In this document: positions 3,844 through 58,215 of the stretch, in pieces
Position numbering within the stretch: the first letter of the stretch is position 1
Layout of the letters: each line of letters opens with the position of its first letter
DNA from: Acidimicrobiales bacterium
GTDB lineage: Bacteria; Actinomycetota; Acidimicrobiia; Acidimicrobiales; VFJN01
Assembly: GCA_035641315.1 (NCBI GenBank)
Contig: DASQUK010000054.1
Span: 348-64,347 of the forward strand
Length of the DNA stretch: 64,000 nt
Direction of reading: 5' to 3'
Translations under genes and position numbers: made by a program
The notes under the pieces: model-generated
The model's database searches: none
What the model saw: only the letters and a program-made list of their open reading frames with translations
What the model was told of the DNA's origin: nothing

Positions 3844-4853
3844 CCGCGCCTGCGCCCGAACCGGCGGAGTCGGCCAGCGAGACTCCGCCGCTGCCCCCTC
3901 CCCCTCCCCCGCCGCCGGCCGTCCCGTTGGATCCCGCGTTCGCCGCCGACGCCACGGTCGTGGTCCGGGGCGCCAGCGTCTGGTTCGGCCAGAAGGTCGC
4001 GCTCACCGACCTGTCGTGCTCGTTCGGTCCCGGCGTCACCGGCCTGCTGGGACCCAACGGCGCCGGCAAGACCACCCTGATGCGAGCCATGACCGGGCTG
4101 CTGCGGCCCAACGAGGGCAGCGTCGCCGTGCTCGACCGCGATCCGCACACCGACCGGGACGTCCAACGCTCCATCGCCCTGGTGCCGGAGGACGAGGCCG
4201 TGCCCCCGGCGCTCAGCGCACGCCAGCTCGTGCGCTACGCGGCGGCGCTGCACCGGGTCGGTGACCGCGGCATGCCCGACCGCTGCCTGCAGACCGTGGG
4301 CCTGCTGGACGTCGCCGACCGCAAGGTGCGCGGCTTCAGCAAGGGCATGCGCCAGCGCGCCAAGGTCGCCGCCGCGCTGGTGACCGATCCTCGGATCCTG
4401 GTGCTCGACGAGCCGCTCAATGGCGCCGACCCGATGCAGCGGGTGGCGCTGATCAACCTGTTCCAGTCCCTCGGCGCCCAGGGCCGCACCGTCGTCGTCA
4501 GCTCGCACGTGCTGCACGAGGTGGAGCGGCTGGCCGGCCGCCAGATCGTGATCATCCGGGGGCGGCTGGCGGCGGCGGGTGACCACCGTGCCATCCGCGA
4601 TGCGCTGGCCGACCGGCCGCGGTCGGTCCTGGTGCGGACGCCGGAGGCCCGCCGGCTCGCCGGTCACCTGGTGGGCATCGACGCCGTGCGCGGCGTGACG
4701 GTCGACGGCAACACCGTGGTCGTGTCGTCGCCCCGGGCCGGCGAGCTGGCTGAGCTGTTGCCGGTGGCGGCACGCGAGGCGGGCGCCCGGCTGCACGAGG
4801 TGCGGCCCCTCGACGACTCGCTGGAGAGCGTCTTCCGGGAGCTGCTGCGATGA
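3840..4853 (+). CDS. ABC transporter ATP-binding protein (second ATPase of the operon)
   Basis: GTG at 3840 overlaps the upstream stop (GTGA). Walker A GPNGAGKTT, signature FSKGMRQR, Walker B ILVLDEPLNGAD. Pro-rich N-terminus. Confidence 0.9.
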   Translation: MTAPAPEPAESASETPPLPPPPPPPPAVPLDPAFAADATVVVRGASVWFGQKVALTDLSCSFGPGVTGLLGPNGAGKTTLMRAMTGLLRPNEGSVAVLDRDPHTDRDVQRSIALVPEDEAVPPALSARQLVRYAAALHRVGDRGMPDRCLQTVGLLDVADRKVRGFSKGMRQRAKVAAALVTDPRILVLDEPLNGADPMQRVALINLFQSLGAQGRTVVVSSHVLHEVERLAGRQIVIIRGRLAAAGDHRAIRDALADRPRSVLVRTPEARRLAGHLVGIDAVRGVTVDGNTVVVSSPRAGELAELLPVAAREAGARLHEVRPLDDSLESVFRELLR

Positions 4854-4925
4854 GCGAGCGTCGCCCGTCCACTCCCCGCTCACGGGTCCTGTCGCCTCCG
4901 GTGCGGCGGCTTCGACGCCGTGATG

Positions 4926-4961
4926 CCCGCTCTTGGCGGCTGCGCCGCCGGGCCGCTCGGG
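4926..4961 (+). repeat. R1 hairpin-core repeat unit
   Basis: cccgctctt-GGCGGC-tgc-GCCGCC-gggccgctcggg. Confidence 0.85.
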
Positions 4962-5077
4962 CCCTGGCGCCGCCGGCGCCGATAGGCGCCGACAGCGGCA
5001 CCGCATCCTCAGCGCCACCCGTTCGCTGCCGCCCTGCCACTCGGGCGTCAAGGGCCTCGGCCTCCGACGCTACACCT

Positions 5078-5113
5078 CCCGCTCGTGTCGCCTGCGGCGG
5101 CGGGCCGCTCGGG
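5078..5113 (+). repeat. R1 hairpin-core repeat unit
   Basis: cccgctcgt-GTCGCC-tgc-GGCGGC-gggccgctcggg, preceded by the ccgacgct(a/g)... linker also seen at 17553 and 48460. Confidence 0.85.
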
Positions 5114-5142
5114 CCCAGGGGGGGCCGAGTCGTGGTTCTTCC

Positions 5143-5949
5143 ATGAGCGAGGCCACGGCCGCGCCGCCAGCGCCCGGCGCTCGACCAGTAGGCACGAGCA
5201 GCGGACGGCGGCTGCCGAGCCCGTTCGTGGCGCTGGTGGGCTACACGCTGCGGGCCTGCCTCCCTGCCCGGCGCTGGTTCGGCGTGCTGTTGCCGTGCGC
5301 CGGTGCGCTGCTGTTCGGCTGGCTGTCGGCCGCCGACTCCCGGACCGCCGAGGCGGCGTTCGGCGACGTCGCCGAGCTGGGCCTGTTCGGGCTGGTGCTG
5401 CCGCTCACCTGCCTGGTCATCGGTGACGCCGTGCTCGGTGCCGACATCCGGGCCGGGACGTTTCCACTGACGTGGCTGTCGCCCGCCCGATTCGGCACCA
5501 TCGTCGCCGCCCGGTGGCTGGGTGGCTGGATCGTGGCCCTCGTCAGCCTGGTGCCGGCGTTGGTCCTGGCCACGATCGTGGCCGGCGTGCCGGAAGGGGC
5601 GGGCGCCATGGCGATCGCGGGCGCCGCCGGCTCGGCCGCCTACATCGGGTTGTTCGTGATGATCGGCGCCTCCGTCCGCCGGGCCGCGGTCTGGTCGCTG
5701 GCAGTCGTGTTCCTGGGCGAGCGCCTCCTGGGCGGCGTGCTCTCGGGCATCGCGCAGCTCTCGCCGATGTGGGAGTCCCAGCAGGTCTACGCCGGCCTCG
5801 CCGACGACCACGGCGGTTGGCGGCTGCTGCGGGACGGAACACCCAACGGTTGGAGCGCCGTCGTGCGGCTGGCCATCGTGGCGATCGTGACCCTGGCCGT
5901 GGCGTCGTGGCGGATCAGGCACCTCAAGCCGACGGGCGGCGACGAATGA
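5143..5949 (+). CDS. ABC transporter permease (second membrane component)
   Basis: ATG at 5143. 268-aa multi-TM protein ([51 protein letters not shown]...). Confidence 0.75.
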
Positions 5950-17498: not shown

Positions 17499-17505
17499 CG
17501 CTCGG

Positions 17506-18705
17506 TCAATCATTCCCGCTCTTGGCGGCTTCGGCGCCGGGCCGCTCGGGCTGCGACGCTGTGTTTCCCGCTCTTGTCGCCTTCGGCGACGGGCCGCTCG
17601 GGCCCGGGGCTGGCTGCATTGCGGACGCTCGTTCAGGCCCCTCGAGCACGCACACCAGGTTCTGTTGCAGGCAGGGACCGCTGGTGGCGTGGGCCACCGC
17701 CCGCCCGGCCTCGCCCCGCTGGATGCGGCCGGCGGCCTCGCCGATCCGGATGAGCCCGGCGGCCATGATCGGGTTGGCGGCCAGCGCGCCGCCCGACGGG
17801 TTGATGGCCACCCGGTCCCCGTCGCCGTTGCCGAGGCCGAGGGCGTTGCGCAGCAGCACCTCCTGGTGGGTGAAGGGCGCGTGCAGCTCGGCCACATCGA
17901 CCGGTGCGGCGCCGACCACCCCGGCCCGCTCGCCGGCCAGGCGGGTCGAGATGGAGGCCGTGAGGTCGCGCACGCCGAGGCCGTGGGCCTCGATGCGGTG
18001 GTCGATCCCCCGGATCCAGGCCGGGCGGTCCACCAGCTCGCGGGCCCGGTCGCCGGCCGCCAGGATCAGGGCCGCCGCCCCGTCGGTGATCGGCGGGCAG
18101 TCGTGGCGGCGCAGCGGCGAGGCGATCTCGGGCTCCTTCAGCAAGACGTCCGGGTCGTCGGAGCCCTGCAGCTGGGCGAAGGGGTTGCCGGCCGCGGCCC
18201 GGCGGCTGCGGGCGGCGATCTCCGCCATCTCCGCGACCGAGGTCACTCCGGCCTCGATGCACGCCCGGGCCTGGAGGGCGGCAAGCGCCACGCTGTCCGG
18301 CCACAGCGGCGCCACGTAGTAGGGGTCGAGCTGGCGGGACAGCACGTCGCGCAGCGATCCCGGTGACGCCTTGCCGTAGCTGTAGACCAGCGCGGTGTCC
18401 GCGGCCCCGGTCTGGATCTTCACCCAGGCCTCGTAGAGGGCCCAGGCGCCGTCCATCTCGACGTGGCTCTCGCTGATGGGCGGGAACGCTCCGACCCCGT
18501 CGAGCGTCGATACGAAGCTGAAGGCGGCACCCGCCAGGTAGTCAGAGCTACCGGAGCAGGTGAAGTCGATCTGGGCCTGGTCGAGCCCCACGTCCGCCTT
18601 CACCTGGTGCAGCACGGGCATGAGCAGTTCGACCTCGTTGCGCCGCTGCTCGCGCCGCATGTGGTGCGACTGGGCGAAGGCCACCACCGCGACGTCGCGA
18701 GTCAC
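17506..18705 (-). CDS. thiolase-fold Ltp-like protein, ORF extended about 40 aa at the C-terminus through R1 repeats
   Basis: GTG 18705 overlaps the upstream stop (GTGA). CPPITDGAAALIL, INPSGGALAANPIMAAGL, ...LQQNLVCVLEG, then the tail PERASAMQPAPGPSGPSPKATRAGNTASQPERPGAEAAKSGND encoded by repeats 17515-17640. Confidence 0.85.
   Translation of the reverse strand: MTRDVAVVAFAQSHHMRREQRRNEVELLMPVLHQVKADVGLDQAQIDFTCSGSSDYLAGAAFSFVSTLDGVGAFPPISESHVEMDGAWALYEAWVKIQTGAADTALVYSYGKASPGSLRDVLSRQLDPYYVAPLWPDSVALAALQARACIEAGVTSVAEMAEIAARSRRAAAGNPFAQLQGSDDPDVLLKEPEIASPLRRHDCPPITDGAAALILAAGDRARELVDRPAWIRGIDHRIEAHGLGVRDLTASISTRLAGERAGVVGAAPVDVAELHAPFTHQEVLLRNALGLGNGDGDRVAINPSGGALAANPIMAAGLIRIGEAAGRIQRGEAGRAVAHATSGPCLQQNLVCVLEGPERASAMQPAPGPSGPSPKATRAGNTASQPERPGAEAAKSGND
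17515..17640 (+). repeat. R1 repeat dimer plus degenerate tail module
   Basis: Units at 17515-17550 (GGCGGC-ttc-GGCGCC core) and 17567-17602 (GTCGCC-ttc-GGCGAC core). Tail ...gcggacgctcgttcagg. Confidence 0.85.
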
Positions 18706-41120: not shown

Positions 41121-41125
41121 TGCTC

Positions 41126-41198
41126 CCCGCTCATGCTGCTTCGCAGCGGGCCGCTCGGGCCTCGCTCGCTCGCTCGCCCTGCGGGATGCTCGCTCATG
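41126..41198 (+). repeat. R1 repeat unit plus tail module, filling the tatA-tatC spacer
   Basis: cccgctcat-GCTGC-ttc-GCAGC-gggccgctcggg, then cctcgctcgctcgctcgccctgcgggatgctcgctcatgg. Confidence 0.85.
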
Positions 41199-41700: not shown

Positions 41701-41786
41701 GCTTAGAAGATACGCGCTCGGTCGTAGACCGAGGCCATCAGGGTGGCGGGCGGGGGTCGGGCTGGAGTGTAGAGGGACCCCTGGGG

Positions 41787-42023: not shown

Positions 42024-42034
42024 CGCCGCCGACG

Positions 42035-42376
42035 CTAGAGGCTGCGGCGGTGGGCGGCGAGGAGCTGGTCGAACCAGCCCCTCTCAGTGAGCATGTCGTG
42101 GAAGTCGATCAGGTCGTCGTGGGTGAACGGGGCCCCGACCGGTCGGGGTTCGACCAGCTCCGACGGGATGGTCCACAGCTCGAGCCGCACGCCCGACGAG
42201 ATCAGCAGATCGATCGTCGACCGGTCGGCCGGGCGGACCACCGGTTGCGTGCAGTTGGGGCACCGGAACACGTAGGTGCCCGCCTCGTCGGTCTCGCACA
42301 ACCTGACCACGAGGTCGCGCGTTCCCAGCTCGACGTCACCGCAGTCGCTGCACGTGGCTCTGATCAAGGTCGCCAT
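42035..42376 (-). CDS. hypothetical zinc-ribbon protein
   Basis: 113 aa. CSDCG...FRCPNC. Confidence 0.55.
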   Translation of the reverse strand: MATLIRATCSDCGDVELGTRDLVVRLCETDEAGTYVFRCPNCTQPVVRPADRSTIDLLISSGVRLELWTIPSELVEPRPVGAPFTHDDLIDFHDMLTERGWFDQLLAAHRRSL

Positions 42377-42477
42377 CTGTCCTTGTCTCCCTGTTCGCTC
42401 CCCCCAAGGGAGGGACCGAGCGAGACATCATGACGCCGTTTGCCCGATGATGTCCCATCGCCACCGACAGGATCCCC

Positions 42478-43197: not shown

Positions 43198-43201
43198 CGG
43201 C

Positions 43202-43981
43202 TCACAGCCATCCGATGTCGGTGATGGGCAGGACCCGGATGAAGGCGCGGCCGACGATGTCGTCCTCGTCGATCGGGCCGAAGCATCGGCTGTCGTCGCT
43301 GTTGGTGCGGTTGTCTCCCATGACGAAAACGGATTCGTCAGGCACCTCTTGGGGCTGCAGCTCGCAGCTGCCGGTCCCGCACGCCGGCGTGTCCTCGGCG
43401 AGGTAGGGCTCGTCAATGCGCTCGCCATTGACGTAGACGTCGTTGTTGCGGCACTCGATCATGTCGCCCTTGACGGCGATGACCCGCTTGATCAGGTCCT
43501 TGATCTCACCGTCCTCGCCCGTGGAGGCGACGGGCGGCCGCTCGAACACCACCACGTCGCCCCGGTTGACGTCGTGGAGCTGGTACGACAGCTTGTTGAC
43601 GAGCACGCGGTCACCGATGTGGAGCGTCGGCTCCATCGACTCCGACGGGATCCAGAAGGCCTGGATGAGGAAGGCCTCGACCAGCAGCGCGATGGCGATC
43701 CCGCCGCCGATGACCCCCAGCCATTCGAGGATGGTGCGGCGCCAGCGCCGGCGGGGCTTGGCGCGGGCATCGTCGCCGCCGTCGCCCCCGTCCCCCTCGT
43801 CGTCTCCGTCACCCCCGCCCCGGTTGGCGGAGTCGGCGCGCTCGGTGAGCCGGTGGTGGTCGGGGTCCTCGCCCTTGAAGGGGGCGCGGCCGTCGCCGTT
43901 GGAGCGGAGGTGGCGGGGCTGGTGCGGGAGCTCCCGGGCGCCAGCTCGCCTGTTCTTTTGCGGGGGAGAAGCGTCACGCAC
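43202..43981 (-). CDS. lepB: signal peptidase I
   Basis: IPSESMEPTL (Ser box), GDVVVF, KRVIAVKGD (Lys box), GDNRTNSDDSR. Confidence 0.92.
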   Translation of the reverse strand: MRDASPPQKNRRAGARELPHQPRHLRSNGDGRAPFKGEDPDHHRLTERADSANRGGGDGDDEGDGGDGGDDARAKPRRRWRRTILEWLGVIGGGIAIALLVEAFLIQAFWIPSESMEPTLHIGDRVLVNKLSYQLHDVNRGDVVVFERPPVASTGEDGEIKDLIKRVIAVKGDMIECRNNDVYVNGERIDEPYLAEDTPACGTGSCELQPQEVPDESVFVMGDNRTNSDDSRCFGPIDEDDIVGRAFIRVLPITDIGWL

Positions 43982-44018
43982 GGCAGGGCGAGGCTAGCGC
44001 GCCGGGGTGACGATCCCG

Positions 44019-45014
44019 TCAGCTGCCGTGGTCGCGGCGATACCGGGCGAGGATGCGGCGGGCGGCGTTCCGGCCGGCGTCGACCAGCTCCGGGGCGTCG
44101 GCATCGACCACCCGGACGTCCGGCCCCAACCGCACCAGCAGGCGTTCGAGCCATGGGGCGGCCGACACCCGCAGGCGCACCCGCAGCCAGCCGTCGGGAC
44201 CAGTGGGGGCCGGGCCCACCTCGTCGACCGGGTAGGTCTCGACCACCCAGCGGGCGGACGGCGCCAGCTCCAGGGTCACCAGGGGCGTGGAAGGCCCCGG
44301 GTCGAACACGCCGCCCCCCTCGTCGGCGTTGGCGGGCGGCGTGAAGGTCTCGTCCAGCACCTCGACGCCGTAGATCCGGTCGACCCGGAACAGCCGCTGG
44401 TCACACGCCTGGTGGCAATAGCCCCGCACGTACCACGCACCCTCGTGGGCGAAGACCGCGTGCGGATCGACCTCGCGGGTCGTCCGGTGGTCCCGGGTGT
44501 AGGCGTAGTAGTCGAGGCGCACCCGGCGGCCGGCCGCCGCGGCCTGGCGTAGCTCGGCCAGCACGCCGGGCCGGGTCTCGCCCAGCGCCACCGACACGGC
44601 CTCGTCGGGATCGACCCCCAGCACCTTTGCCACCTTGGCCAGGGCGGTGGCCAGGGGCCCTCCGGGCTCGGTGCCGGGCAGCGCCTGGGACGCCCGGCCG
44701 GCCACCACCAGCGCCAGGCCCTGCTCCGGGGTGAGGTGCAGAGGGCGGGCGAACATGTCGGCGAAGCGCAGCCACACCCGATCGCCCTCGATCGTGACCT
44801 CGATCAGCGTGTCGGGCGTGTAAGGCGGCACGCCGACCAGCGAGAGCACCTCGAGGTCCTCGAGCAGCTTGCGGCGGTTGACCTGGAAGCGCTCGCAGAT
44901 CTCGTCGACGGTGGGTCCGCCGTGCGCCGCGATCCAGGGGATCATCGCCAGCATGCGCGCCACGCGGTCGGACGCCTTGGTGCGGGCCGGCGTAGGGGTT
45001 GCAGCGGTGCTCAT
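44019..45014 (-). CDS. pafC: HTH-WYL transcriptional regulator PafC
   Basis: 331 aa. ATGA overlap with pafB. RVARMLAMIPWIA HTH, WYL-type RVRLDYYAYTRDHRTTREVDPHAVFAHEGAWYVRGY. Confidence 0.88.
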   Translation of the reverse strand: MSTAATPTPARTKASDRVARMLAMIPWIAAHGGPTVDEICERFQVNRRKLLEDLEVLSLVGVPPYTPDTLIEVTIEGDRVWLRFADMFARPLHLTPEQGLALVVAGRASQALPGTEPGGPLATALAKVAKVLGVDPDEAVSVALGETRPGVLAELRQAAAAGRRVRLDYYAYTRDHRTTREVDPHAVFAHEGAWYVRGYCHQACDQRLFRVDRIYGVEVLDETFTPPANADEGGGVFDPGPSTPLVTLELAPSARWVVETYPVDEVGPAPTGPDGWLRVRLRVSAAPWLERLLVRLGPDVRVVDADAPELVDAGRNAARRILARYRRDHGS

Positions 45015-45937
45015 GCGGCCAGTGCCGCCAGCCACCCGACGATGTCGGCGCGCAGCTCGGGCGGCCCGAGCACCTCGGCGTGGTCGAGGAAGGTGAGCAC
45101 GAACGAGCGGAAGCTGTCGCGGTTGGTCACCGTCATCGTGACCACCACCGACCCGTCGAGTCGCTCCTCGGCCACGGCGCCGGGGCCGAGGTGCTGCACG
45201 ATCCACGGCGCCTGGGCGGCGTCCACCAGCACCTGGGCGTCGACGGCTTCGTCCTCGCCGATCTGCCACGGCTCGAGCTGGCCGCCGGGCACGGCGGTGG
45301 TGGGCCGCTCGAACCGGGGACCGTCCAGCCGCTCCACCCCGCTCTCGAAGCGGTCCAGCCGGTAGACCCGCTCGTCGTCGCGGGTGTGGTCGAAGCCGCT
45401 GAGGTACCAGCGGCCCCGCAGGAAGTCGAGCCGGTAGGGGTCGACGATGCGGGCCTTGCCCCGGTACGTGAACCGCACCGGCGTCCTGGCGGCGATGGCG
45501 CCGAACAGCGGGCCGACGTGCCCGGCCGGCAGTGCCGCAACGGCCAGACCCATGGCGCCGTCCGCCTCGCCCACCATGCCGCCCAGCTTGAGCAGTCCTT
45601 CGCGGGCCGAGAGCCCGTCGATCTGGACCACCGATGCCGCCAGGTGGAGGGCGGCGAGCTCGTCTGCGTCGAGGCCCGGGTCCCGCAGGTAGTAGCGGTC
45701 CTTGGGGATCCGGTAGCCCTCCACGGCGGGGATGACGCCGGGCACGTCCTGGACCTCGAGCGGCACCCCCATGGCGCGCAGGTCGTCCTTGTCGCGCTCG
45801 AAGGCCCGGCGGAAGGCGTCTGTCTCGTCCGCGTACATGCCCAGCCGGTCGCGGATCTCCAGGGCGGACAGCGGGCGCGGCGTCTCCAGCAGCAGGGCGG
45901 TGAGGTTGAGCAGCCGTTCCAGCTTCGCCGCTGACAT
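45011..45937 (-). CDS. pafB: HTH-WYL transcriptional regulator PafB
   Basis: 308 aa. AKLERLLNLTALLLET HTH, WYL-type VRFTYRGKARIVDPYRLDFLRGRWYLSGF. Confidence 0.88.
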   Translation of the reverse strand: MSAAKLERLLNLTALLLETPRPLSALEIRDRLGMYADETDAFRRAFERDKDDLRAMGVPLEVQDVPGVIPAVEGYRIPKDRYYLRDPGLDADELAALHLAASVVQIDGLSAREGLLKLGGMVGEADGAMGLAVAALPAGHVGPLFGAIAARTPVRFTYRGKARIVDPYRLDFLRGRWYLSGFDHTRDDERVYRLDRFESGVERLDGPRFERPTTAVPGGQLEPWQIGEDEAVDAQVLVDAAQAPWIVQHLGPGAVAEERLDGSVVVTMTVTNRDSFRSFVLTFLDHAEVLGPPELRADIVGWLAALAA

Positions 45938-45948
45938 CGAGCGGAAGG

Positions 45949-46974
45949 CTACCGATGGCGGGTGCGCCGCTGGTCCACCGCCTCGAGTGCGCCGGCGGCC
46001 CAGGCCCCGGCCGCCGACGCCGCCGCGAAGAACAGCGGATCGTCCCCCGGGCCCCGGCCCATCGACGTCACCGTCAGGTCGAGCTTCGCCAGCACCCCGG
46101 CTGCGTCGGGGGCGTCCACCACCGTGGCACCGTCGACCTCGGACGCCAAGGCGGCCGGCAGCGGCACCTCGGGCCGGTGCGCGGCCAGCCGCAGGATGGT
46201 GTGGACGTGGTGGCTCACCCCCCGGTGGCGTTCGCGGGGATCGACGCCCGAGGCCCGCGAGCACAGCGCCACCCTGGCGCCCAGGGCGTGGGCGGCGTCG
46301 ACGATGCCCGCCACCTCGACGGCCGTGGTGCCGAGCGGCGACGCCGTGCCCACCACCCCTGGCCCCATGCCCACGATGGCGAGGTCGGCGCCCGCCACGT
46401 GGCGGGCCAGCGCCAGCGCCGAGGGGACGGACACGGCCTCGAGGTCGCCGCCGAAGGCGTGGCCGGTGGTGATGGTGGTGTCGACGATCCCGCGGGTGTG
46501 CAGGCTGTGGACCAGGTCGGACAGCGCCAGCGGCAGGGCGGCGCCGTCCGTCATGACGTAGGCGATGCGGGCGATCGGCCGCAGGTGGCGCACCACCGCA
46601 GACACCACGCCCACCTGGCTGTGGAGCGAGCACGCCACCAGCGGCATGCCGTCGAGCGCCTCGGGCAGCTCGGTACGGTCCTCGTCGGCAGCGCCGGTGT
46701 CCGCCTGGAGGCTGGTGTAGCGCAGCTTCATGATGTGGCCGGGCCCGGGCCGGGACCAGGCCCGGCGGGCCAAGTTCCAGTGCACGACGTGCCATCCGCC
46801 GGTTCCGAGGCCGAGCTCGACCGCGGTGGTGTTGAGCACCACGGGATCGCCCACCCCCACCGTGCCGATCAGCCCGGTGAGGACGTAGGCCCGGCCCGCG
46901 TCGGTGGCCACCCGCTGCAGACCCTCCCGCTCGGAGAGGATCTCGGTGACCGTGGTGGTGACGAAGCTCGGCAC
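45949..46974 (-). CDS. DUF3866-like protein of unknown function
   Basis: 341 aa. VVLNTTAVELGLGTGGWHVV motif recalled from DUF3866 proteins. Sits between pafA and pafB, 11 nt from the pafB start. Confidence 0.65.
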   Translation of the reverse strand: MPSFVTTTVTEILSEREGLQRVATDAGRAYVLTGLIGTVGVGDPVVLNTTAVELGLGTGGWHVVHWNLARRAWSRPGPGHIMKLRYTSLQADTGAADEDRTELPEALDGMPLVACSLHSQVGVVSAVVRHLRPIARIAYVMTDGAALPLALSDLVHSLHTRGIVDTTITTGHAFGGDLEAVSVPSALALARHVAGADLAIVGMGPGVVGTASPLGTTAVEVAGIVDAAHALGARVALCSRASGVDPRERHRGVSHHVHTILRLAAHRPEVPLPAALASEVDGATVVDAPDAAGVLAKLDLTVTSMGRGPGDDPLFFAAASAAGAWAAGALEAVDQRRTRHR

Positions 46975-47060
46975 CCGGCGACGCTACCCGGCCTGGTACG
47001 AGCGATTCTGCCCGCGCTCGCCGCTCATATCGACCGTGAGCGCGGGCAGAACGCGTCGGG

Positions 47061-48419
47061 CTACAGCCCGGCGATCAGCTTTTCCACCCGCTCGTCGCGG
47101 GACTTGAACGGGTCCTTGCAGAGGACCGTGCGCTGGGCCTGGTCGTTGAGCTTCAGGTGCACCCAGTCGACCGTGTAGTCGCGCTTGCGCTCCTTGGCCC
47201 GGCGGATGAACTCACCCCGAAGCCGGGCCCGGGTGGTCTGCGGCGGCGTCTCAACCGCTTCGTCGATGGCCTCGTCGGTGGTGACCCGATCGACCATGCC
47301 CCGCTCCTGGAGCCGGTAGAACAGGCCGCGCTCGCGGTTGACGTCGTGGTACTGCAGGTCGATGAGGGCGACGCGGGGGTGGCTGAGCGGCAGGTCGTGC
47401 TTGGCGCAGTACGCCTCGATCAGCTTGTGCTTGATCACCCAGTCGCACTCGCGGTCGAGCTTGTACGGGTCGGACTCGAGCACGGTCAGGCAGTGCTCCC
47501 ACATGTCCAGCGCCTGGAGCTCGAGCGGCGACAGGCCCTTGGTCTCGGCGTAGCGCCGCGCCCGGTCCAGGTACTCGCCCTGGATCTCCAGCGCCGAAGC
47601 CTCCCGCCCGTTGGCCAGCCGCACGGTGCGCTTGCCGGACAGGTCGTGACTGATCTCCCGGATGGCCCGGATGGGGTTCTCGAGCGTCATGTCCCGCAGC
47701 ACGAACGACGGGTCCTCCAGCATGCGCAGCAGGATCGACGTGGCCCCCACCTTCAGGAACGTGGCGTACTCGCTCATGTTCGAGTCGCCCACGATCACGT
47801 GGAGGCGCCGGTAGCGCTCGGCGTCGGCATGGGGCTCGTCGCGGGTGTTGATGATCGGCCGGCTGCGTGTCGTGGCCGACGACACGCCCTCCCAGATGTG
47901 CTCGGCCCGCTGGGCGATGCAGTACATGGCGCCCCGGGCGGTCTGCAGCACCTTGCCGGCGCCCGCGTAGATCTGGCGGGACACGAAGAACGGGATCAGC
48001 ACCTCGGCGTAGTGGCTGAAGTCGTCCCGCCGCGACGTGAGGTAGTTCTCGTGGCAGCCGTAGGAGTTGCCGGCGGAGTCGGTGTTGTTCTTGAACAGGT
48101 AGATGACGCCACGGATGCCCTCCTCCCGCAGCCGCTGCTCGGCCGAGACCAGCAGCTGTTCGAGGATCCGCTCCCCGGCCTTGTCGTGCGTGACCAGGTC
48201 GAGGATCGAGTCGCACTCCGGCGTGGCGTACTCGGGGTGGCTGCCCACGTCGAGGTAGAGCCGGGCACCGTTGGCGAGGAAGACGTTGCTGGAGCGGCCC
48301 CACGAGACGACCCGGCGGAACAGGTACCGGGCCACCTCGTCGGGGCTCAGCCGGCGCTGGCCGCGGAGCGTGCAGGTGACGCCGTATTCGTTCTCGAGGC
48401 CGAAGATGCGTCGCTCCAC
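47061..48419 (-). CDS. pafA: Pup--protein ligase PafA
   Basis: (GTG)[13 protein letters not shown]...[19 protein letters not shown]. 452 aa. Confidence 0.95.
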
Positions 48420-48423
48420 TACT

Positions 48424-48550
48424 TCCCGCTCTTGCTGCTTCGCAGCGGGCCGCTCGGGCTCCGACGCTGTGTCTCACGCTCTTGCCGCCTGCGGCGGCGG
48501 GCCGCTCGGGCCCTGGGCTCGCTCTCTCGCCCTACGGGACGCTCGCTCAT
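48424..48550 (+). repeat. R1 repeat dimer plus tail module
   Basis: Units at 48424-48457 (GCTGC-ttc-GCAGC) and 48474-48509 (GCCGCC-tgc-GGCGGC). Tail cctgggctcgctctctcgccctacgggacgctcgctcatg. Confidence 0.9.
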
Positions 48551-48607
48551 GTCATCGCACGCTACCGCCGCATCGCATGCAACCGAGGTGCGGGTACGGT
48601 CGCGAGC

Positions 48608-48814
48608 ATGGCGATTGGCCCGATGGTGCCGCTGACCACCGCCGCCAATCCGATGGCGGCCCGGATCCTCGCCGCCCACCTCGGTGCCGAGGGCATCGTG
48701 TGGCAGCTGCGCGGCGACGTCGACGGGCCCTACCCGGTGGGCCCCGTCGAGGTCCTGGTGCCGGCCGCCGACCTCGAAGTGGCCCGGATCATCGTCGGCC
48801 TCGACGAGGACTGA
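48608..48814 (+). CDS. small DUF2007-like protein (opposite strand within the proteasome operon)
   Basis: 68 aa, GC3-rich. NPMAARILAAHLGAEGIVWQL...VEVLVPAADLEVARIIV resembles the putative signal-transducing DUF2007 pattern. Confidence 0.45.
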   Translation: MAIGPMVPLTTAANPMAARILAAHLGAEGIVWQLRGDVDGPYPVGPVEVLVPAADLEVARIIVGLDED

Positions 48815-48817
48815 CCT

Positions 48818-49597
48818 TCAGGCCTGGCTGTCCTCGCCGTCGCCGCTCGCCGGCGGCTCGCTGGGGGTGGCCTCGGCGGGCGGCGTCACCTCGGGCGGGG
48901 TCTCGACCTTGACCTCGCCGCCGGACAGGGCCGCGGCCGTGGCGTCGTCGCCCAGGCGCTGGAACGCCCGCCGCCCGTTGCCCCGGGCCATGACGGCCAC
49001 CTCCAGCTCCGCCGGCGCCAGCGTGCGGCCCGGGCCGGCCAGCGCCGCCACGGCGGCCCGGAGCGCGGCGTCGAGGGCCAGGCCCGGCTGGTAGGTGTCC
49101 TTGAGCCGCGCCGCGATGGCATCGGCCTCGCCCCCCAGCACCGTGAAGCCGGTCTCGTCGACCACCGTGCCGTCGTAGAGGATGTGGAACAGCCGGTCGC
49201 CGTCGGGGTCGGTGCCCACCTCGGCCACCACGATCTCGACCTCCATGGGCTTGATCTCGTGGGTGAACACGTCGCCCAGCATCTGGGCGTAGGCGTTGGC
49301 CAGGCTCTGGGCGTCGACGTCCTCACGGCTGAACGAGTAGCCCTTGAGGTCGGCGTGCCGGACGCCGGCGATGCGCAGCCGGTCGTACTCGTTGTACTTG
49401 CCTGCGCCCGCGAACGCGATGCGGTCGTAGATCTCGCTGATCTTGTGCAGCGTCGACGACGAGTTCTCGGCGCAGATGAGGATGCCGTCCGCGTAGAGAA
49501 GCGCGGCCAGGGCCTTGCCCCGCGCGATGCCCTTGCGCGCGAAGTCGGCCTTGTCCTTCATCATCTGCTCGGCGGGGACGTAGATCGACATGCTCAT
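48818..49597 (-). CDS. prcA: proteasome subunit alpha
   Basis: 259 aa. YVPAEQMMKDKADFARKGIARG...ISEIYDRIAFAGAGKYNEYD. Confidence 0.95.
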   Translation of the reverse strand: MSMSIYVPAEQMMKDKADFARKGIARGKALAALLYADGILICAENSSSTLHKISEIYDRIAFAGAGKYNEYDRLRIAGVRHADLKGYSFSREDVDAQSLANAYAQMLGDVFTHEIKPMEVEIVVAEVGTDPDGDRLFHILYDGTVVDETGFTVLGGEADAIAARLKDTYQPGLALDAALRAAVAALAGPGRTLAPAELEVAVMARGNGRRAFQRLGDDATAAALSGGEVKVETPPEVTPPAEATPSEPPASGDGEDSQA

Positions 49598-50442
49598 CGG
49601 GCGGGGCCTCCGTCGCTCGCGGTCGGGCTGACGCCGACGCTGGTGGTGCTGCCGGGGATCGACAGGCGGTCGACCAGCGCCCGGAACCGGCCGGCGACGT
49701 CCTCGTCCTCGAGGCGGGCGAACCCGTCGGCGGTGATGGTGGCCACGACCGGGAAGATGCCCCGCACCAGGTCGGGCCCGCCGGTGGCCGCGTCCTCGTC
49801 GGCCGCCTGGAACAGGGCGTTGATCGCCAGCTCGATGGCCGCGTCACGGTCGAGATCCGGCTTGTAGCCGATCTTGATGACGGTGCCCGCGTGCAGGCTG
49901 CCGGACCCGGTGGCGGCGAACTCGCTCTCCTCGTAGCGGCCGCCGGTCACGTCGTACTCGAACAGCCGGCCGGTGCCCCGCTTGGTGTCGAACCCGGCGA
50001 ACAGGGGCACAACCGCGAAGCCCTGCAAGGCTGCGGGCAGGTGGCTGCGCACCATCCCCGCCAGCTGGTTGGCCTTGCCGTCGAGCGACAGCTCGGCGCC
50101 CTCGACCTTCTCGTAGTGCTCGAGCTGGAGCTGGAACAGCTTGACCATCTCGACCGCGGGGCCGGCGGCGCCGGCGATGGCGACCCCGGAATGCCGGTCG
50201 GCGGGGAACACCTTCTCCATCGAGCGGTGACTTATGAAGCCGCCGGCGGTCGCCCGCCGGTCACCGGCCATGACCACGCCGTCGGCGTAGCGGATCGCCA
50301 CGACCGTGGTGCCGTGGGTGATCTCATGGGGTTGGAGCTCACGAGGCAGATCGGCCCAGCGGGGCTCGACCCCGGCGCGTTTGAGGACTTCGAGGAAGGA
50401 CGGGCCGGGATCGTCATCGGCGCGGAACAGCGGGAGGGTCAT
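49594..50442 (-). CDS. prcB: proteasome subunit beta (with propeptide)
   Basis: ...ITHG/TTVVAIRYADGVVMAGDRRAT, active-site Thr after the propeptide. ATGA overlap with prcA. Confidence 0.95.
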   Translation of the reverse strand: MTLPLFRADDDPGPSFLEVLKRAGVEPRWADLPRELQPHEITHGTTVVAIRYADGVVMAGDRRATAGGFISHRSMEKVFPADRHSGVAIAGAAGPAVEMVKLFQLQLEHYEKVEGAELSLDGKANQLAGMVRSHLPAALQGFAVVPLFAGFDTKRGTGRLFEYDVTGGRYEESEFAATGSGSLHAGTVIKIGYKPDLDRDAAIELAINALFQAADEDAATGGPDLVRGIFPVVATITADGFARLEDEDVAGRFRALVDRLSIPGSTTSVGVSPTASDGGPAR

Positions 50443-50513
50443 CGCAGCGGAGGCTACCGGCTGTCCGCACGACCGGAGTCATGGCTCACCGGCCACGTCG
50501 GCCGATCCGTGGC

Positions 50514-50544
50514 GCCGAACTGGTTGGCCAGCCACCAATTCCGC
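50514..50544. repeat. R5-related copy in the pup-prcB spacer
   Basis: gccgaactggttggccagccaccaattccgc, compared with gccgaactggttgctcggcaaccacttcggc at 29557. Confidence 0.6.
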
Positions 50545-50570
50545 TCCCGGAACCGACCGAAAACCACGCA

Positions 50571-50597
50571 GGCGCCTCCCCGGTCCAGGGAGGCGCC
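50571..50597 (-). promoter_or_regulatory. 10-bp-stem hairpin between pup and prcB (attenuator/terminator candidate)
   Basis: GGCGCCTCCC-cggtcca-GGGAGGCGCC. Confidence 0.5.
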
Positions 50598-50610
50598 AGA
50601 TCTACGCCAT

Positions 50611-50642
50611 ACCTATGCCAGGCCGAACCTATGCCAGGCCGA
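50611..50642. repeat. 16-bp direct tandem repeat x2
   Basis: acctatgccaggccga repeated back to back, about 30 nt downstream of the pup stop. Confidence 0.8.
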
Positions 50643-50672
50643 CCGCCATCAGGACGTCATGTCATCCGATGG

Positions 50673-50870
50673 CTACTGACCGCCTTTCTGGACGTATGCC
50701 TTGACGAACTCCTCGGCATTGACCTCGAGCACCTCGTCGATCTCGTCCAGCAGGTCGTCGAGCTCCGCCTTGATCTTCTCGCCTTGCTCCGAGGTAGCGG
50801 GCGCCTCCTCGACGACCTCTTCCTCGCGAACGGGGGTGGATGCCTTGCGCTTCTGCTCTCGTTCAGCCAT
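50673..50870 (-). CDS. pup: prokaryotic ubiquitin-like protein Pup
   Basis: 65 aa. Acidic, ...LDEIDEVLEVNAEEFVKAYVQKGGQ (C-terminal GGQ). Confidence 0.95.
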   Translation of the reverse strand: MAEREQKRKASTPVREEEVVEEAPATSEQGEKIKAELDDLLDEIDEVLEVNAEEFVKAYVQKGGQ

Positions 50871-50909
50871 GTGCCCCGTACCTTCCTATTGGCCCCTAAT
50901 GGCCCAGCC

Positions 50910-52427
50910 CTACTGGCCCAGCCGGTCCAACAACTCAGCGACACTGCTGCTCTCGGCCATCAACTTACCCACGTGTGCTTCGGTTCCGCGCGTCGGGTCC
51001 ATCATGGGCACCCGCCGCAGCGGGTCGCCACCGATGTCGAACACCATCGAGTCCCAGTTGGCGGCCACGATCTGCGGCGCCCAGCGCTGCAGGCACATCC
51101 CCCGGAAATAGGCCCGGGTGTCGCGGGGCGGCTCGGTCACCGCCCGCAAGACCTCGTCGTCGGTGGTCAGGCGTTCCAGCCCCACCCGTGACGCCAGGCC
51201 CCGCTCGGCCCGCAGGTCGTGGTACTGCAGGTCCATGGCCGCGAGGCGGGCGTCGTCCCAGCGCAGGTCGTGCTTGGCGCGGTAGCCGTCGATCAGCCGG
51301 TGCTTGGCCGCCCAGTCGACCTGCCGGGACACCGACGCCGGCTCGGTCTCGAGGCCCGTGAGCACGTGCTCCCACAGCCGCAGTACCTCGGCACCGACGT
51401 CCAGCGGCCCGATGCAGTCGAGCCCGTGCTCCTCGGCGTACTTCTTGGCCCGGTCGAGGTACTCCCACTGCATCTCGACCGCGGTCATGGTGGTGCCGTC
51501 GGCCAGGTCGAGCGGCTGGCGCAGCGACAGGTCGTGCGACACCCGGCGCAGGGCCGCCACGGGGGCGGCCAGGGTGAGGTCCCGGGGCAGGAACTCGTCC
51601 TCGATCATCGACAGCACCAGCGCGGTGGTGCCCACCTTGAGGAAGGTGGCGACCTCGGACAGGTTGGCGTCGCCCACGATCACGTGCAGCCGCCGGTAGC
51701 GCTGTGCGTCGGCGTGGGGCTCGTCGCGGGTGTTGACGATCGGCCGCTTGAGCGTGGTCTCGAGGCCGACCTCCTCCTCGAAGAAGTCGGCCCGCTGCGT
51801 GAGCTGGAAGGGCACGTCGTCGGAGGTCAGGCCGGCAACCTCGGTGCCCACCTTGCCGGCGCCCGTGAACACTTGGCGGCTGATGAAGTGCGGCATCACG
51901 TGGGTGACGATGCGCGAGAACGGCACCTGGCGATCCATCAGGTAGTTCTCGTGGCAGCCGTAGGAGTTGCCCTTGCGGTCGGAGTTGTTCTTGTAGACCA
52001 CGATCTCCTGCCCCTCGGGGAGCAGGTCGCGGGCGACCCGCATCGAGCGCTGCAGGATGATCTCGGCCGCCTTGTCGAACACCACGACCGAGCGAGGGTC
52101 CGCGCACTCGGGCGTGGACAGCTCGGGGTGGGCGTGGTCGACGTAGTATCGGGCGCCGTTGGTCAGCACGGCGTTGACCAAGTGGGTCTCGACCTCGGGG
52201 GCCAGCGATCCCTCGGCCGTGAAGCCGCGGGCGTCGATGTCGGGGTGCTCGTCCTCGAAGTCCCAGCCCACCTTGGGGTTGTCGCGGGGACCGGCCCCGG
52301 CCCGGGCCAGCTCGTGGACGTAGGCGTTGATCAGGACCGACGACGCCGCGATGGGGTTGGACTCCCCCGCCCCGCGCACGATGATGCCGAACTCGGTCTC
52401 GACACCGACGATCTTGCGCAAGGCCAC
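50910..52427 (-). CDS. dop: Pup deamidase/depupylase Dop
   Basis: GTG 52427. RKIVGVETEFGI...GARYYVDHAHPELSTPEC. Paralogous to PafA. Confidence 0.93.
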   Translation of the reverse strand: MALRKIVGVETEFGIIVRGAGESNPIAASSVLINAYVHELARAGAGPRDNPKVGWDFEDEHPDIDARGFTAEGSLAPEVETHLVNAVLTNGARYYVDHAHPELSTPECADPRSVVVFDKAAEIILQRSMRVARDLLPEGQEIVVYKNNSDRKGNSYGCHENYLMDRQVPFSRIVTHVMPHFISRQVFTGAGKVGTEVAGLTSDDVPFQLTQRADFFEEEVGLETTLKRPIVNTRDEPHADAQRYRRLHVIVGDANLSEVATFLKVGTTALVLSMIEDEFLPRDLTLAAPVAALRRVSHDLSLRQPLDLADGTTMTAVEMQWEYLDRAKKYAEEHGLDCIGPLDVGAEVLRLWEHVLTGLETEPASVSRQVDWAAKHRLIDGYRAKHDLRWDDARLAAMDLQYHDLRAERGLASRVGLERLTTDDEVLRAVTEPPRDTRAYFRGMCLQRWAPQIVAANWDSMVFDIGGDPLRRVPMMDPTRGTEAHVGKLMAESSSVAELLDRLGQ

Positions 52428-52477
52428 GTCTGGGACGTTACCCGCCTGGTGTGGCAAGCGAGTCGCCCGCCCCCTGC

Positions 52478-52864
52478 CTAGCAGCCGCCTGAATCCACAT
52501 CTGTGAGGACCGTGCCGTCGCCCCGCAGCTCGGCCGTGACACACCGGGCCTGGATCCCCCAGCGCGTCTCCACCGCCACGACCACGGGACCGTCCTCGTC
52601 GGGACGGGCGGATCCGACGACCCGGCCGGGCAGGTCATCGACAACTTCTGCCGCCAGCGACTCGATCGTGCTCCGGGTGCCGGGATAGCCGGCCAGGGTC
52701 TCGTCCGACACGGCGGCCAAGTCCTCGCGCACGGCCCGACGGATTCGCTCGGCCCGGTCGTCGGCGACGTTGCTCATGGCCATGTTCCCGAGCACTCCAC
52801 CCACGACCAGCACGCCGCCCACGACCAGGATGATCGCCAAGCGGCCCTCCTTGGTCTCGGTCAA
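52478..52864 (-). CDS. hypothetical membrane-anchored protein
   Basis: TTG 52864 is the first start after the arc stop. TM LAIILVVGGVLVVGGVLG, then a soluble domain. Start uncertain. Confidence 0.4.
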   Translation of the reverse strand: MTETKEGRLAIILVVGGVLVVGGVLGNMAMSNVADDRAERIRRAVREDLAAVSDETLAGYPGTRSTIESLAAEVVDDLPGRVVGSARPDEDGPVVVAVETRWGIQARCVTAELRGDGTVLTDVDSGGC

Positions 52865-52914
52865 ACCTCGGAGGCGCGTCGTGGGCTCCGGACGCTTGAG
52901 CCGCTCGGGCGGCG

Positions 52915-54690
52915 CTACAGGTACTGGCCGGTGGCGACCCGCTCGATGCTGCGGCCGCCGGTGGCGCTGCCGTCGTCGCGGTTGACGATGGTGCGCACGT
53001 AGACGATGCGCTCGCCCTTCTTGCCGGAGATCTTGGCCCAGTCGTCGGGGTTGGTGGTGTTGGGCAGGTCCTCGTGCTCCTTGTACTCCTGGTGGATCGA
53101 CTCCACCAGGTCGCCGACCCGGATGCCCTTGCGCCCCTCGGCCAAGTGCCGCTTGATCGCCAGCTTCTTGGCCCGCCGCACGATGTTCTCGATCATGGCC
53201 CCGGACGCGAAGTCCTTGAAGTACATGATCTCCTTGTCGCCGTTCTGGTAGGTGACCTCGAGGAACTCGTTCTCCTGGTCGGAGCGGTACATCTCCTCGA
53301 CGGTGCGCTCGATCATCGCCTGCACGCACTTGGACGGGTCGTTGCCGCCCAGCTCGCGCACGTCGTCGGGGTCGAGCGGCAGGTCGGTGGTGAGGTAGCG
53401 GGCGAAGATCTGCGCCGCCGCCGCCTCGTTGGGCCGCTCGATCTTGATCTTCACATCCAGCCGGCCGGGCCGCAGGATGGCGGGGTCGATCAGGTCCTCG
53501 CGGTTGGAGGCGCCGATGACGATGACGTTGCGGAGCGACTCCACGCCGTCGATCTCGGCGAGCAGCTGCGGGACGATGGTCGACTCCACGTCGGAGCTGA
53601 TGCCGCTGCCCCGGGTGCGGAACATCGAGTCCATCTCGTCGAAGAACACGATGACGGGCCAGCCTTCCTCGGACTTCTCCCGGGCCCGCTGGAACACCAG
53701 GCGGATCTGGCGCTCGGTCTCGCCGACGTACTTGTTGAGCAGCTCGGGGCCCTTGATGTTGAGGAAGTAGCTCTTGGCCTTGGCGTCGACCGACTGGTTG
53801 CCCACCTTCTTGGCCAGGCTGTTGGCCACAGCCTTGGCGATGAGCGTCTTGCCGCAGCCCGGCGGCCCGTAGAGGAGGATGCCCTTGGGCGCCGGCAGCT
53901 TGTGCTCGGCGAACAGCTCCTGGTGCAGGAACGGCAGCTCGACCGCGTCCGCGATCTGCTCGATCTGCTCGTCGAGGCCGCCGATGTCCTCGTAGGAGAT
54001 GTCGGGCACCTCCTCGAGCACCAGCTCCTCGACCTCGGGGCGGGGCAGCTTCTCGAGCAGCAGGCCCGAGCGCGGGTCCATGAGCACCGAGTCCCCGGCC
54101 CGGAGACGGTCGACCTTGAGCCCCTCGGACAGGTCGGCGACCCGCTCCTCCTCGGCCCGGCCGACGATGATCGCCCGGAGCCCGTCATCGAGCAGCTCCT
54201 TGACCGTCACGACCTCGCCGGTGGTCTCGGGCGTGCGGGCCATGACGACGTTGAGCGACTCGTTGAGCACGACCTCGCCGCCGCGGACCAGCTCGTTCTC
54301 GTCGAGGGCGGGGTGGACGGCTACCCGCATCTTGCGCCCGCCGGAGAAGACGTCGACCGTGCCGTCGTCGTTGTGCGACAGAAGGGTGCCGTAGGCGGAC
54401 GGGGGCTGGGTGAGCTTGTCGACCTCCTCGCGCAGGGCGCCGATGTGCTCGCGCGCCTCGCGGAGGGTGTAGGTGAGCTTCTCGTTCTGGGCCACGGCCT
54501 GGGCCAGCTGGCCCTTGGTCTCGAGCAGGCGCTCCTCGAGCGTGCGGACCCGCTTGGGCGCGTCCTGCAGCCGCCGCCGGAGCGCGAGGACCTCTTCTTC
54601 CAGGGCGCGGATCTCGTCGTGCTGCCCGGCCCCGTCGGCCTCCGCCGCGGACCGACGGCCTTGGTCGCGTTGCTCGTCGACGGTGACCAC
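52915..54690 (-). CDS. arc: proteasome-associated AAA ATPase ARC/Mpa
   Basis: Coiled-coil N-terminus, OB region, Walker A GPPGCGKT, Walker [11 protein letters not shown]-terminal GQYL. Start GTG 54690 or ATG 54810; the latter would translate repeat R3. Confidence 0.93.
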
Positions 54691-54756
54691 CTCCTCGATC
54701 GGTCCCTCGGCGTCGGACCCTACACCGGCCCTTCCCAACCCACACCCCCTGATTCC

Positions 54757-57180: not shown

Positions 57181-58215
57181 TCATCGCCTGCGCTTCCCGC
57201 TCTTGCTGCTGCGCAGCGGGCCGCTCGAGCCTCGCTCGCTCTCTCGCCCTCCGGGACGCTCGCTCAGGACGCCGGCCCGGCCCGGGCGGACCAGCTCGAC
57301 CGGCACCGGGTCCTCGCCGGCCACCTGGTCCACCAGCCGGCAGAAGGCGCACACCTCGCCGGTCGTCGGAGACCCGCAGCGGGCGCAGGGCCGCAGCGCC
57401 TGCTGGGCGGCGTCGACCTCGGGCGAGAAGCGGTCGGCCGCCCGGGCCAGGAAGCCGAAGTAGAAGGCCTGCTTGGCGCCGGGCGAGTCGGCCTCGATGG
57501 CGTTGAGCGCCTCCTTGTAGCGCAGGTGCCGGTTGCCCTCCGCCATTGGGCACTCATCGACGATGTAGTCGATGCCCCGCAGGACGCAATAGGCGGCGGT
57601 CTCGCGCTCGGCCAGCCTGACCAGCGGCTTGACCTTCCGGGGGAACCCGGTTCGCTCGCCGAGCACCGGTTGCTGGCGACCCAGGTACTCGGTGTGCCAG
57701 TGGAGCACGTTGCCGAGCAGCACCGCCGTTTCGTCGTCGAGGTTGTGGCCGGTGGCCACCACGTCATAGCCACCGTCGAGCGCCGCCGTGTCGATGAGGT
57801 GGCGCTTGGACAGCCCGCACGACGAGCACGGCACCCGCCGGGTGACCGCCGACGCCGTGGGGACGTCGTAGTCGAAGTCGTCCCGCAGGTCGATGAGGCG
57901 CAGCTCGAGGCCCCGCCGCTCGGCGAACCCCACCGCCGCCTCGGTGCTGGCGGCGCTGTAGTCGCCGATGCCGAGCCCGATCGTCATGCCCTCGGCGTCG
58001 TAGCCGAGCTCGAGCAGCAGGTCCCACAGGGCAAGGCTGTCCTTGCCACCCGAGACGGCCACCAGGACCCGCTCCCCCGGCTCGATCATGTGGTGCTCGT
58101 CGATGGCCCGGGCCACCTGGTCGCGGCAGAACTTGAGGAAGTGGTCGGGGCAGAAGTTGGCGTTGTGGCGGCGCAGGTCGATGACGGCCGGGCCACGGCA
58201 GACGGTGCACTTCAT
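57181..58215 (-). CDS. TtuA/TtcA-like PP-loop ATPase (tRNA thiolation family), ORF tail runs through an R1 repeat
   Basis: N-terminal CTVCRG...FCPDH, PP-loop VAVSGGKDS, GHNLDDE, C-terminal CARCG...CAFC, then ...[29 protein letters not shown] encoded by 57196-57266. Confidence 0.85.
   Translation of the reverse strand: MKCTVCRGPAVIDLRRHNANFCPDHFLKFCRDQVARAIDEHHMIEPGERVLVAVSGGKDSLALWDLLLELGYDAEGMTIGLGIGDYSAASTEAAVGFAERRGLELRLIDLRDDFDYDVPTASAVTRRVPCSSCGLSKRHLIDTAALDGGYDVVATGHNLDDETAVLLGNVLHWHTEYLGRQQPVLGERTGFPRKVKPLVRLAERETAAYCVLRGIDYIVDECPMAEGNRHLRYKEALNAIEADSPGAKQAFYFGFLARAADRFSPEVDAAQQALRPCARCGSPTTGEVCAFCRLVDQVAGEDPVPVELVRPGRAGVLSERPGGRESERGSSGPLRSSKSGKRRR
57196..57266 (+). repeat. R1 repeat unit plus tail module
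   Basis: cccgctctt-GCTGC-tgc-GCAGC-gggccgctcgag, then cctcgctcgctctctcgccctccgggacgctcgctcagg. Confidence 0.9.

Follow-up and report, generated by a model that had tools for sequence, protein, structure and literature searches.

What is a short hairpin-forming sequence doing, in eight copies, next to the start codons of unrelated genes in a single stretch of an Acidimicrobiales genome (assembly GCA_035641315.1), among them pafA of the Pup-proteasome system? The repeat, here called R1, is probably the conserved core of small, non-autonomous mobile repeats that are nearly confined to the Acidimicrobiia, that target start codons and that seem to preserve translation of the genes they enter. The window referred to below is the whole stretch of DNA that was analysed, 64 kb in length with a G+C content of 72 %.

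R1 units in the window

Genes in the window were called from a third-position G+C frame plot, a custom codon log-odds caller and Pfam. A strict R1 pattern matches four times in the window and a looser pattern six times; the expectation over 100 shuffles is none. A covariance model derived from the window units plus those of other genomes, and scored with filters off along the full window, recovers eight R1 units and no others (41.6–64 bits, E <= 1.5e-6; Table 1), the next match scoring 15.2 bits. All eight had been listed in a first-pass annotation of this DNA, which placed two of them, at 48424 and 48474, 1 nt from their true starts (48425 and 48475). The stems that it gave, such as GCTGC/GCAGC, GGCGGC/GCCGCC and GTCGCC/GGCGAC, are correct, and its description of an interspersed family stands on eight clean matches in the window and further copies in other genomes.

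Read on the minus strand (the ‘G-sense’), an R1 unit consists of GCCCGAGCGGCCC, a stem of 4–7 bp, a G-N-A loop closed by C:G, the return stem and (C)AAGAGCGGGAA; the flanks in this sense are GCCCGAGCGGCCC before the first stem arm and CAAGAGCGGGAA after the second. Units are 35–37 nt long and occur in three forms: single, joined head-to-tail through a 16-nt linker, or preceded by a 5′ module (module 2) that begins ATGAGCGAGCG and carries a CCC-GNA-GGG mini-hairpin, in which N is T, C or G in the window. Composites of these parts measure 70–131 nt. Module 2, earlier reported from four loci, is clear at three of them and weaker at 17604–17636.

Four of the five R1 loci lie 5–16 nt upstream of a minus-strand start codon (thiolase-like gene, 17498; tatC, 41120; pafA, 48419; trmI, 57179), and locus 1 is the only one between plus-strand genes. 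The shared plus-strand orientation of the units is therefore mostly a consequence of gene direction, and the earlier emphasis on copies of one strand amid operons of both was misleading. Intercistronic or 5′-leader placement is supported, although ‘five spacers’ was too strict a description: at the thiolase-like (locus 17) and trmI (locus 57) sites the upstream ORF runs through the repeat, and those units are not strictly in spacers.

Two further stretches look like decayed R1 relics (Table 1), the first of which resembles the commonest type of other genera (GTTCGC-TGC-...). The tatC and pafA loci fall within a complete Pup-proteasome neighbourhood (40347–54738, minus strand) comprising arc, dop, pup, prcB, prcA, pafA, DUF3866, pafB and pafC, then tatA, tatC and helY; pafA and a small DUF2007 gene are divergent.

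No Rfam family matches R1, either in the window at gathering thresholds or in four R1-carrying loci at E <= 1. The sole Rfam match in the window is elsewhere, a glycine riboswitch aptamer (RF00504, 53.4 bits) at 5991–6096 on the plus strand, upstream of the glycine cleavage P-protein gene (6206–9067).

Table 1. R1 units, modules and associated features in the 64-kb window
Feature	Position	Strand	Composition and remarks
Locus 1 insert, 293 bp	4850..5151	+	Between ABC ATPase and ABC-2 permease genes; direct repeats ATGAGCGAG at 4850-4858 and 5143-5151
Locus 1 R1 units	4926-4962; 5078-5114		Inverted relative to the genes; 58.7 and 54.1 bits
Locus 1 degenerate third unit (decayed relic)	~5020-5053	+	
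Thiolase-site composite	17506..17636	-	Module-2 variant 17604-17636 with units 17567-17603 and 17515-17551; between two thiolase-like genes; 64 and 56.2 bits
tatC start, second ATGAGCG copy	41114-41120		Start codon plus four bases
tatA-tatC insert, 77 bp, precise	41121..41197	-	Target copy ATGAGCG (41191-41197), module 2 (41161-41197) and one R1 unit (41126-41160; 46.1 bits)
R1 unit beside pafA	48425..48459	-	GCCCGAGCGGCCC GCTGC GAA GCAGC AAGAGCGGG; 5 nt before pafA GTG 48419; 47.9 bits
Second R1 unit of pafA array	48475..48511	-	Stem GCCGCC GCA GGCGGC; linker GAGACACAGCGTCGGA to first unit; 57.9 bits
Module 2, pafA locus	48512..48550	-	ATGAGCGAGCG TCCC GTA GGGCGAGAGAGCGAGCCCAGG; mini-hairpin CCC-GNA-GGG
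Short ORF, 132 nt, pafA locus	48419..48550	-	Opens at ATG 48550, crosses module 2 and both units, ends at TAG 48421-48419; TAGTG overlap with pafA GTG
TAGCGT, -10-like box	48559..48564	-	8 nt upstream of the short ORF ATG
Possible decayed R1 relic	52887..52910	-	GCCCGAGCGGCTCAAGCG...; just past arc stop codon; 15.2 bits, E = 0.21; weak
trmI-site element	57196..57266	-	R1 unit 57196-57230 and module 2 57231-57266; between TtuA-like gene and trmI; 41.6 bits

Structure and covariation of the hairpin

The 145 listed pattern matches contain 58 distinct central (stem–loop) sequences, about 25 of which are different, perfectly paired stems. Every match listed has a three-base loop, which reads T-N-C on the strand that was first used and G-N-A, closed by C:G, in the G-sense. 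Over 39 distinct units from many genomes the central stem is 97 % paired against 72 % in shuffles (0/500). For 13-nt centres the paired cells amount to 96.9 %, as against 72.2 % when shuffled (0/500) and 61.5 % in the best slid register, with a covariation score of 0.564 versus 0.105; for 15-nt centres, in which the G.A class was counted as unpaired, the values are 78.8 %, 57.6 % (0/500) and 42.3 %, with a score of 0.339 versus 0.087. This excess of compensatory pairs over shuffled controls bears out the proposal, first made from the window units, that the central hairpin is kept by compensatory change.

The commonest centre outside the window is GTGAGC-GCA-GCGAAC, with a conserved tandem G.A/A.G mismatch in the G-sense (T.C/C.T on the other strand). 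A variant, GTGAAC-GNA-GTGAAC, has a compensatory G-C to A-T change beside the tandem G.A mismatch. The G-N-A loop closed by C:G and the tandem G.A of the commonest variant make the reverse strand the likely functional one, and not the strand from which the hairpin was originally described.

Predicted fold energies of R1 are no better than those of shuffles on either strand, whether computed as RNA or as DNA, and the structural case therefore rests on covariation and strand asymmetry. Unusually stable DNA mini-hairpins, for example d(GCGAAGC), characteristically contain C-GNA-G loops and sheared G.A pairs. For this reason a role as single-stranded DNA is favoured for the R1 hairpin.

A palindrome maintained by paired changes would also be expected of a symmetric operator bound on double-stranded DNA by a dimeric regulator. 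However, the 3-nt centre of R1 is asymmetric (G-N-A, never its complement on the same strand) and the commonest variant breaks the palindrome with its conserved G.A/A.G pair; with unrelated neighbouring genes and sites that are missing in close relatives, an operator is extremely unlikely. A conserved R1-encoded peptide was considered and rejected, as units of 33 and 35 nt shift the frame and the peptides differ. No intrinsic terminator is found in 48380–48680, and no T run follows any window unit.

Empty and filled sites

R1 units are insertions. The clearest site is that between tatA and tatC, where the gap measures 44 nt in four relatives (TatC 87–90 % identical) and 121 nt in the window, the remainder being collinear. 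The ATGAGCG copy in the insert and that of the tatC start form a 7-bp direct repeat.

The pafA site is empty in the relatives L130, L211 and L213 (loci of other genomes are designated by L numbers), in which GGTAGCGTGCG... runs straight into the pafA start; the window has 131 additional bases at this point. The ATG of module 2 at 48550 takes the place of the ancestral pafA start. In L123, with a PafA 94 % identical, one decayed R1 unit lies at the same spot. There are no R1 units in 78 kb of syntenic sequence from four relatives, and a single unit in 903 kb around 80 metagenome pafA loci, versus eight in the 64-kb window.

The pafA composite aligns with those at 17499–17640 and in L215. Module 2, a unit, the linker and a second unit make up a composite of about 130 nt that recurs in nearly the same sequence at non-orthologous sites, namely window 17499–17640 and an ABC-permease junction in L215, which suggests that R1 moves as a composite. 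The L215 junction is the same ABC junction that is filled at locus 1, and its two R1 units have the orientation opposite to that of the window's. This junction is therefore an insertion hotspot.

ABC-2 permease homologues (P0121–P0240) range from 240 to 335 residues, and the extra N-terminus in L215 (2863–3003) is an in-frame R1 composite. Some annotated ABC-2 permease extensions are therefore probably repeat-derived.

Target duplications were stated to be absent in the first-pass annotation. This was wrong: direct repeats of 7 bp and 9 bp flank the tatC and locus 1 insertions, respectively. In L002 a bare 40-nt unit lies between perfect 25-bp direct repeats, and in L035, L039, L079 and L093 flanking repeats of 12–22 nt contain RTGAGCG. 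Not every site has a clean duplication: that at pafA is imperfect, and loci 17 and 57 have none. Such a spread of lengths (7, 9 and 12–25 bp) would be unusual if a single transposase were at work. As module 2 itself starts with ATGAGCGAGCG, some of what looks like duplication could be element sequence together with target preference. No transposase or other partner protein was identified for R1; mobility is therefore deduced from presence/absence and from duplications, and not from mechanism.

The same observations bear on a classic MITE, in which a DDE transposase would act in trans on terminal inverted repeats and the window forms would be derivatives that have none. Target duplications exist, and in Aldehydirespirator and related genomes the R1 core forms the centre of a roughly 140-nt element whose 22-nt terminal inverted repeats are 86 % complementary, so the earlier remark that such repeats are absent does not hold for the family as a whole. 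Weak 9-nt inverted ends are also seen in the 70-nt tatC element. However, the window elements have no convincing terminal inverted repeats, the part common to all subfamilies is the central hairpin and not the ends, the duplication length is inconstant, and no parent insertion sequence was seen in the loci examined. A classic MITE is thus possible, though unlikely.

The long form is found at L029 (4954–5097), at L107 (4218–4354) and at about 25 other listed loci; its 22-nt ends, AGAGGCCGAGCGGATAGGC..., often abut a stop codon or TA. The weak inverted ends of the 70-nt tatC element (window 41114–41197; L003) are GCATCCCGC and GCGGGGAGC; with the flank pair CCCG/CGGG, these ends could enclose the hairpin in an outer helix.

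Reading frames across the insertions

Of 16 start-adjacent sites in 14 loci, 15 have a short ORF that runs from the upstream duplicated start codon, or a similar RTGAGCG, through the element and onto the true start, where its stop overlaps the downstream start as ATGA, GTGA, TAATG or TAGTG. The sixteenth, in L215, is an in-frame N-terminal fusion. Fourteen of these sites have at least nine different insert lengths, all of which are 2 modulo 3. The third frame is seen at 0 of the 16 sites, a statistic that is weakened by the rarity of stop codons at 72 % G+C, where open frames are cheap, and by the non-independence of copies of one subfamily. At tatC the short ORF is 81 nt long and ends in ATGA on the tatC start. 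Locus 1 obeys the same frame rule: a 98-codon ORF spans its 293 nt, with an ATGA overlap at each end.

It is the upstream gene that extends through the element at loci 17 and 57. The thiolase-like ORF stops at TGA 17506, 7 nt before ATG 17498. The TtuA-like ORF stops at TGA 57181, 1 nt before the trmI GTG at 57179; relatives have a GTGA stop/start overlap between these two genes. TtuA-like homologues end at about residue 304–315 of 344, and the window ORF has about 28 additional, repeat-encoded residues. About 44 repeat-encoded residues are added at the C-terminus of the thiolase-like ORF (17506–17640). Neither extension has the TGA of the module-2 start motif in frame.

The pafA locus adds a question of transcript structure. 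A TANNNT box ends 6–9 nt before the pafA start in 62 of 75 orthologues (L123–L202) and occurs almost nowhere else in the 60 nt upstream. In Actinobacteria a TANNNT box so near a start codon usually marks a leaderless mRNA. The position of the box suggests that pafA mRNA is leaderless across this clade, and that of TAGCGT in the window suggests a leaderless transcript that would now begin with the short ORF instead of pafA. A promoter and terminator scan at the pafA site found nothing.

These features probably reflect the following course of events. The elements enter start codons and ATGA stop/start overlaps that read RTGAGCG(AG), duplicating that target. The upstream RTGAGCG, copied from the start codon at sites of clean duplication, then opens a short ORF ending on the true start, and at operon-internal sites read-through of the upstream gene takes the place of the short ORF. 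By this translational coupling, ribosomes would be delivered to the real start, melting the hairpin en route, and the downstream gene would stay expressed. At pafA the duplicated AUG would keep the 5′-terminal start that a leaderless mRNA needs, and pafA translation would then depend on re-initiation at UAGUG. The hairpin and the GAGCGG flanks may be what a mobilising enzyme recognises, probably on single-stranded DNA.

Distribution and orientation in other genomes

A pattern scan of 185,579 species-representative genomes found at least 120 loci. Among the matches listed, more than 100 R1 copies lie beyond the window, almost all of them in metagenome-assembled Acidimicrobiia genomes. Once about six chance matches are set aside, the listed loci are in MAGs labelled Acidimicrobiia, Acidimicrobiales or Actinomycetota (for example Aldehydirespirator, Poriferisodalis and Microthrixaceae), with a few genuine copies among the matches listed in bins labelled otherwise or as ‘uncultured bacterium’. 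The covariance-model scan proposed in the first-pass annotation, besides recovering the eight window units, gives 132 R1 matches in 100 other loci among those listed. Intergenic positions account for 131 of the 145 listed pattern matches. The window DNA itself matches soil-metagenome contigs.

Clear R1 copies also occur on contigs binned as Acidobacteria, Kiloniellales and Bifidobacteriaceae (L006, L058 and L093); these may be binning errors or transfers. A BLAST search of plasmids and phages with the pafA composite gave no match. Seven pattern matches in viral contigs, all of them lacking the G-N-A hairpin, look like chance.

Copy number at a site ranges from one to seven in the loci listed, and clustered units are all head-to-tail; the arrays of the window have two units. 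A tandem array in L019 (3312–3606) has seven R1 units at a 43-nt period, six of them identical, and could be a variable-number repeat marker.

Orientation, tabulated against transcription as had been proposed, was scored at 118 listed sites after collapsing arrays. Between co-directional genes R1 is in the sense orientation at 51 sites and antisense at 16 (p = 2e-5, a value that combines transcription and replichore effects); a further 21 sites lie between divergent genes and 17 between convergent genes. The sense orientation is a bias and not a rule, and is seen at four of the five window loci. An orientation set by replication alone is unsupported, single 8-kb loci (L056 and L080) holding both orientations.

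The sense bias, the covarying stem and the location of window units 5–16 nt upstream of start codons are also what might be expected of a host cis-regulatory RNA, that is, a leader or intercistronic hairpin selected at each locus for processing, stability or translation. Against this, the element is missing from the same sites in relatives whose flanking proteins are 87–95 % identical, and selection on a host RNA at these loci is improbable on that ground. A quarter of the sites between co-directional genes are antisense, including locus 1, and the variation in copy number from one to seven, the unexceptional fold energies and the lack of an Rfam match do not favour regulation either. The neighbouring genes (thiolase, tatC, pafA, trmI and an ABC permease) are functionally unrelated, for which reason a regulon was rejected. 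A cis-regulatory RNA is accordingly quite unlikely, and R1 is better read as part of a mobile repeat.

Comparison with known repeat families

[quoted passage not shown] Both families consist of units of 40–100 bp, often head-to-tail, that lie between the genes of operons. According to a 2025 review (PMC12548453), MIRUs enter start codons, and their internal ORF is coupled to the gene at a −4 spacing, which minimises harm; empty and filled sites and short direct repeats are recorded for them in an older review. R1 shares the start-codon insertion, the internal ORF overlapping the flanking stop and start codons, and the occurrence of empty as well as filled sites, with short direct repeats. Each family has a 77-nt form. 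In these respects R1 behaves as MIRUs do. MIRUs also have the orientation of their flanking genes, towards which R1 has a bias. The two differ in host, Mycobacterium as opposed to the class Acidimicrobiia, and the R1 hairpin, with its G-N-A loop and covarying stem, is sharply conserved. Unlike MIRUs, R1 also lies, in other genera, inside elements with 22-nt terminal inverted repeats.

In sequence, MIRU292, the sole MIRU unit compared, and the commonest R1 type have the blocks GAGCGCAGCGA, GAGCGG and ATGAC in common and in collinear order (local alignment p about 0.007–0.02); against the window R1 types there is no significant match (p = 0.12–0.23). The sequence similarity between R1 and MIRUs is only suggestive. 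A MIRU dimer searched against plasmids gave no match.

BOX elements of Streptococcus pneumoniae, which an older review describes as modular, MITE-like and non-autonomous with a repeated middle module, resemble R1 in their modular build, variable-copy middle module, intergenic location, and MITE-like and non-autonomous character. However, they are unrelated in sequence and host, and are not tied to start codons or translational coupling. Correia/ERIC-type MITEs are comparable to the long R1 form of other genera, with terminal inverted repeats of about 22 nt around a core of about 100 nt, but the window forms are without such ends and the conserved part of R1 is its centre.

The first-pass annotation likened R1 to REP/BIME elements. 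Such elements, or REPINs, are ssDNA hairpins copied by a REP-associated tyrosine transposase (RAYT), and R1 has much in common with them: a short, G+C-rich, imperfect palindrome with conserved flanks, many intergenic copies, conservation across a whole clade and a strand asymmetry that fits a single-stranded substrate. The resemblance does not extend to the diagnostic details. R1 has no GTAG/GTGG 5′ tetranucleotide, its flanks being GCCCGAGCGGCCC and CAAGAGCGGGAA or their complements; its arrays are head-to-tail, with no inverted doublets; and target duplications are present. Genes between inverted pairs are ordinary (an aldehyde dehydrogenase, an MscS channel). No RAYT was seen in 1.9 Mb of flanks, where a tblastn search with E. 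coli RayT, a low-power test, gave a best E of 0.29. A REP/REPIN origin is very unlikely.

A search for any description of an R1-type repeat in Acidimicrobiia found none in the literature library searched. R1 is a previously undescribed repeat family, MIRU-like and MITE-like, and is probably neither a REP/BIME element nor a host regulatory RNA.

Implications

R1 has consequences for the annotation of Acidimicrobiia MAGs, to which it adds short ORFs and false N- and C-terminal extensions, as in the TtuA-like, thiolase-like and ABC-2 permease proteins. The number of R1 copies varies from site to site, and for this reason the repeat could serve in strain typing in the manner of MIRU-VNTR loci.

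To our knowledge, elements that insert at start codons and are made harmless by translational coupling were until now known only from mycobacteria. R1 offers the same start-codon behaviour in a different actinobacterial class, with many sequenced genomes and very different copy numbers, so that the mobilising enzyme is searchable as a protein whose presence tracks that of the repeat. It is conceivable, although on balance rather unlikely, that R1 and the mycobacterial MIRUs descend from one ancient start-codon-targeting family of the Actinomycetota, in which the invariant hairpin (GAGCGG flanks, G-N-A loop, sheared G.A pair) would be the recognition site of a vertically inherited enzyme acting on single-stranded DNA hairpins. 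If true, common descent would constitute a second partnership of repeat and enzyme of the REP-RAYT kind, and would explain how MIRUs move.
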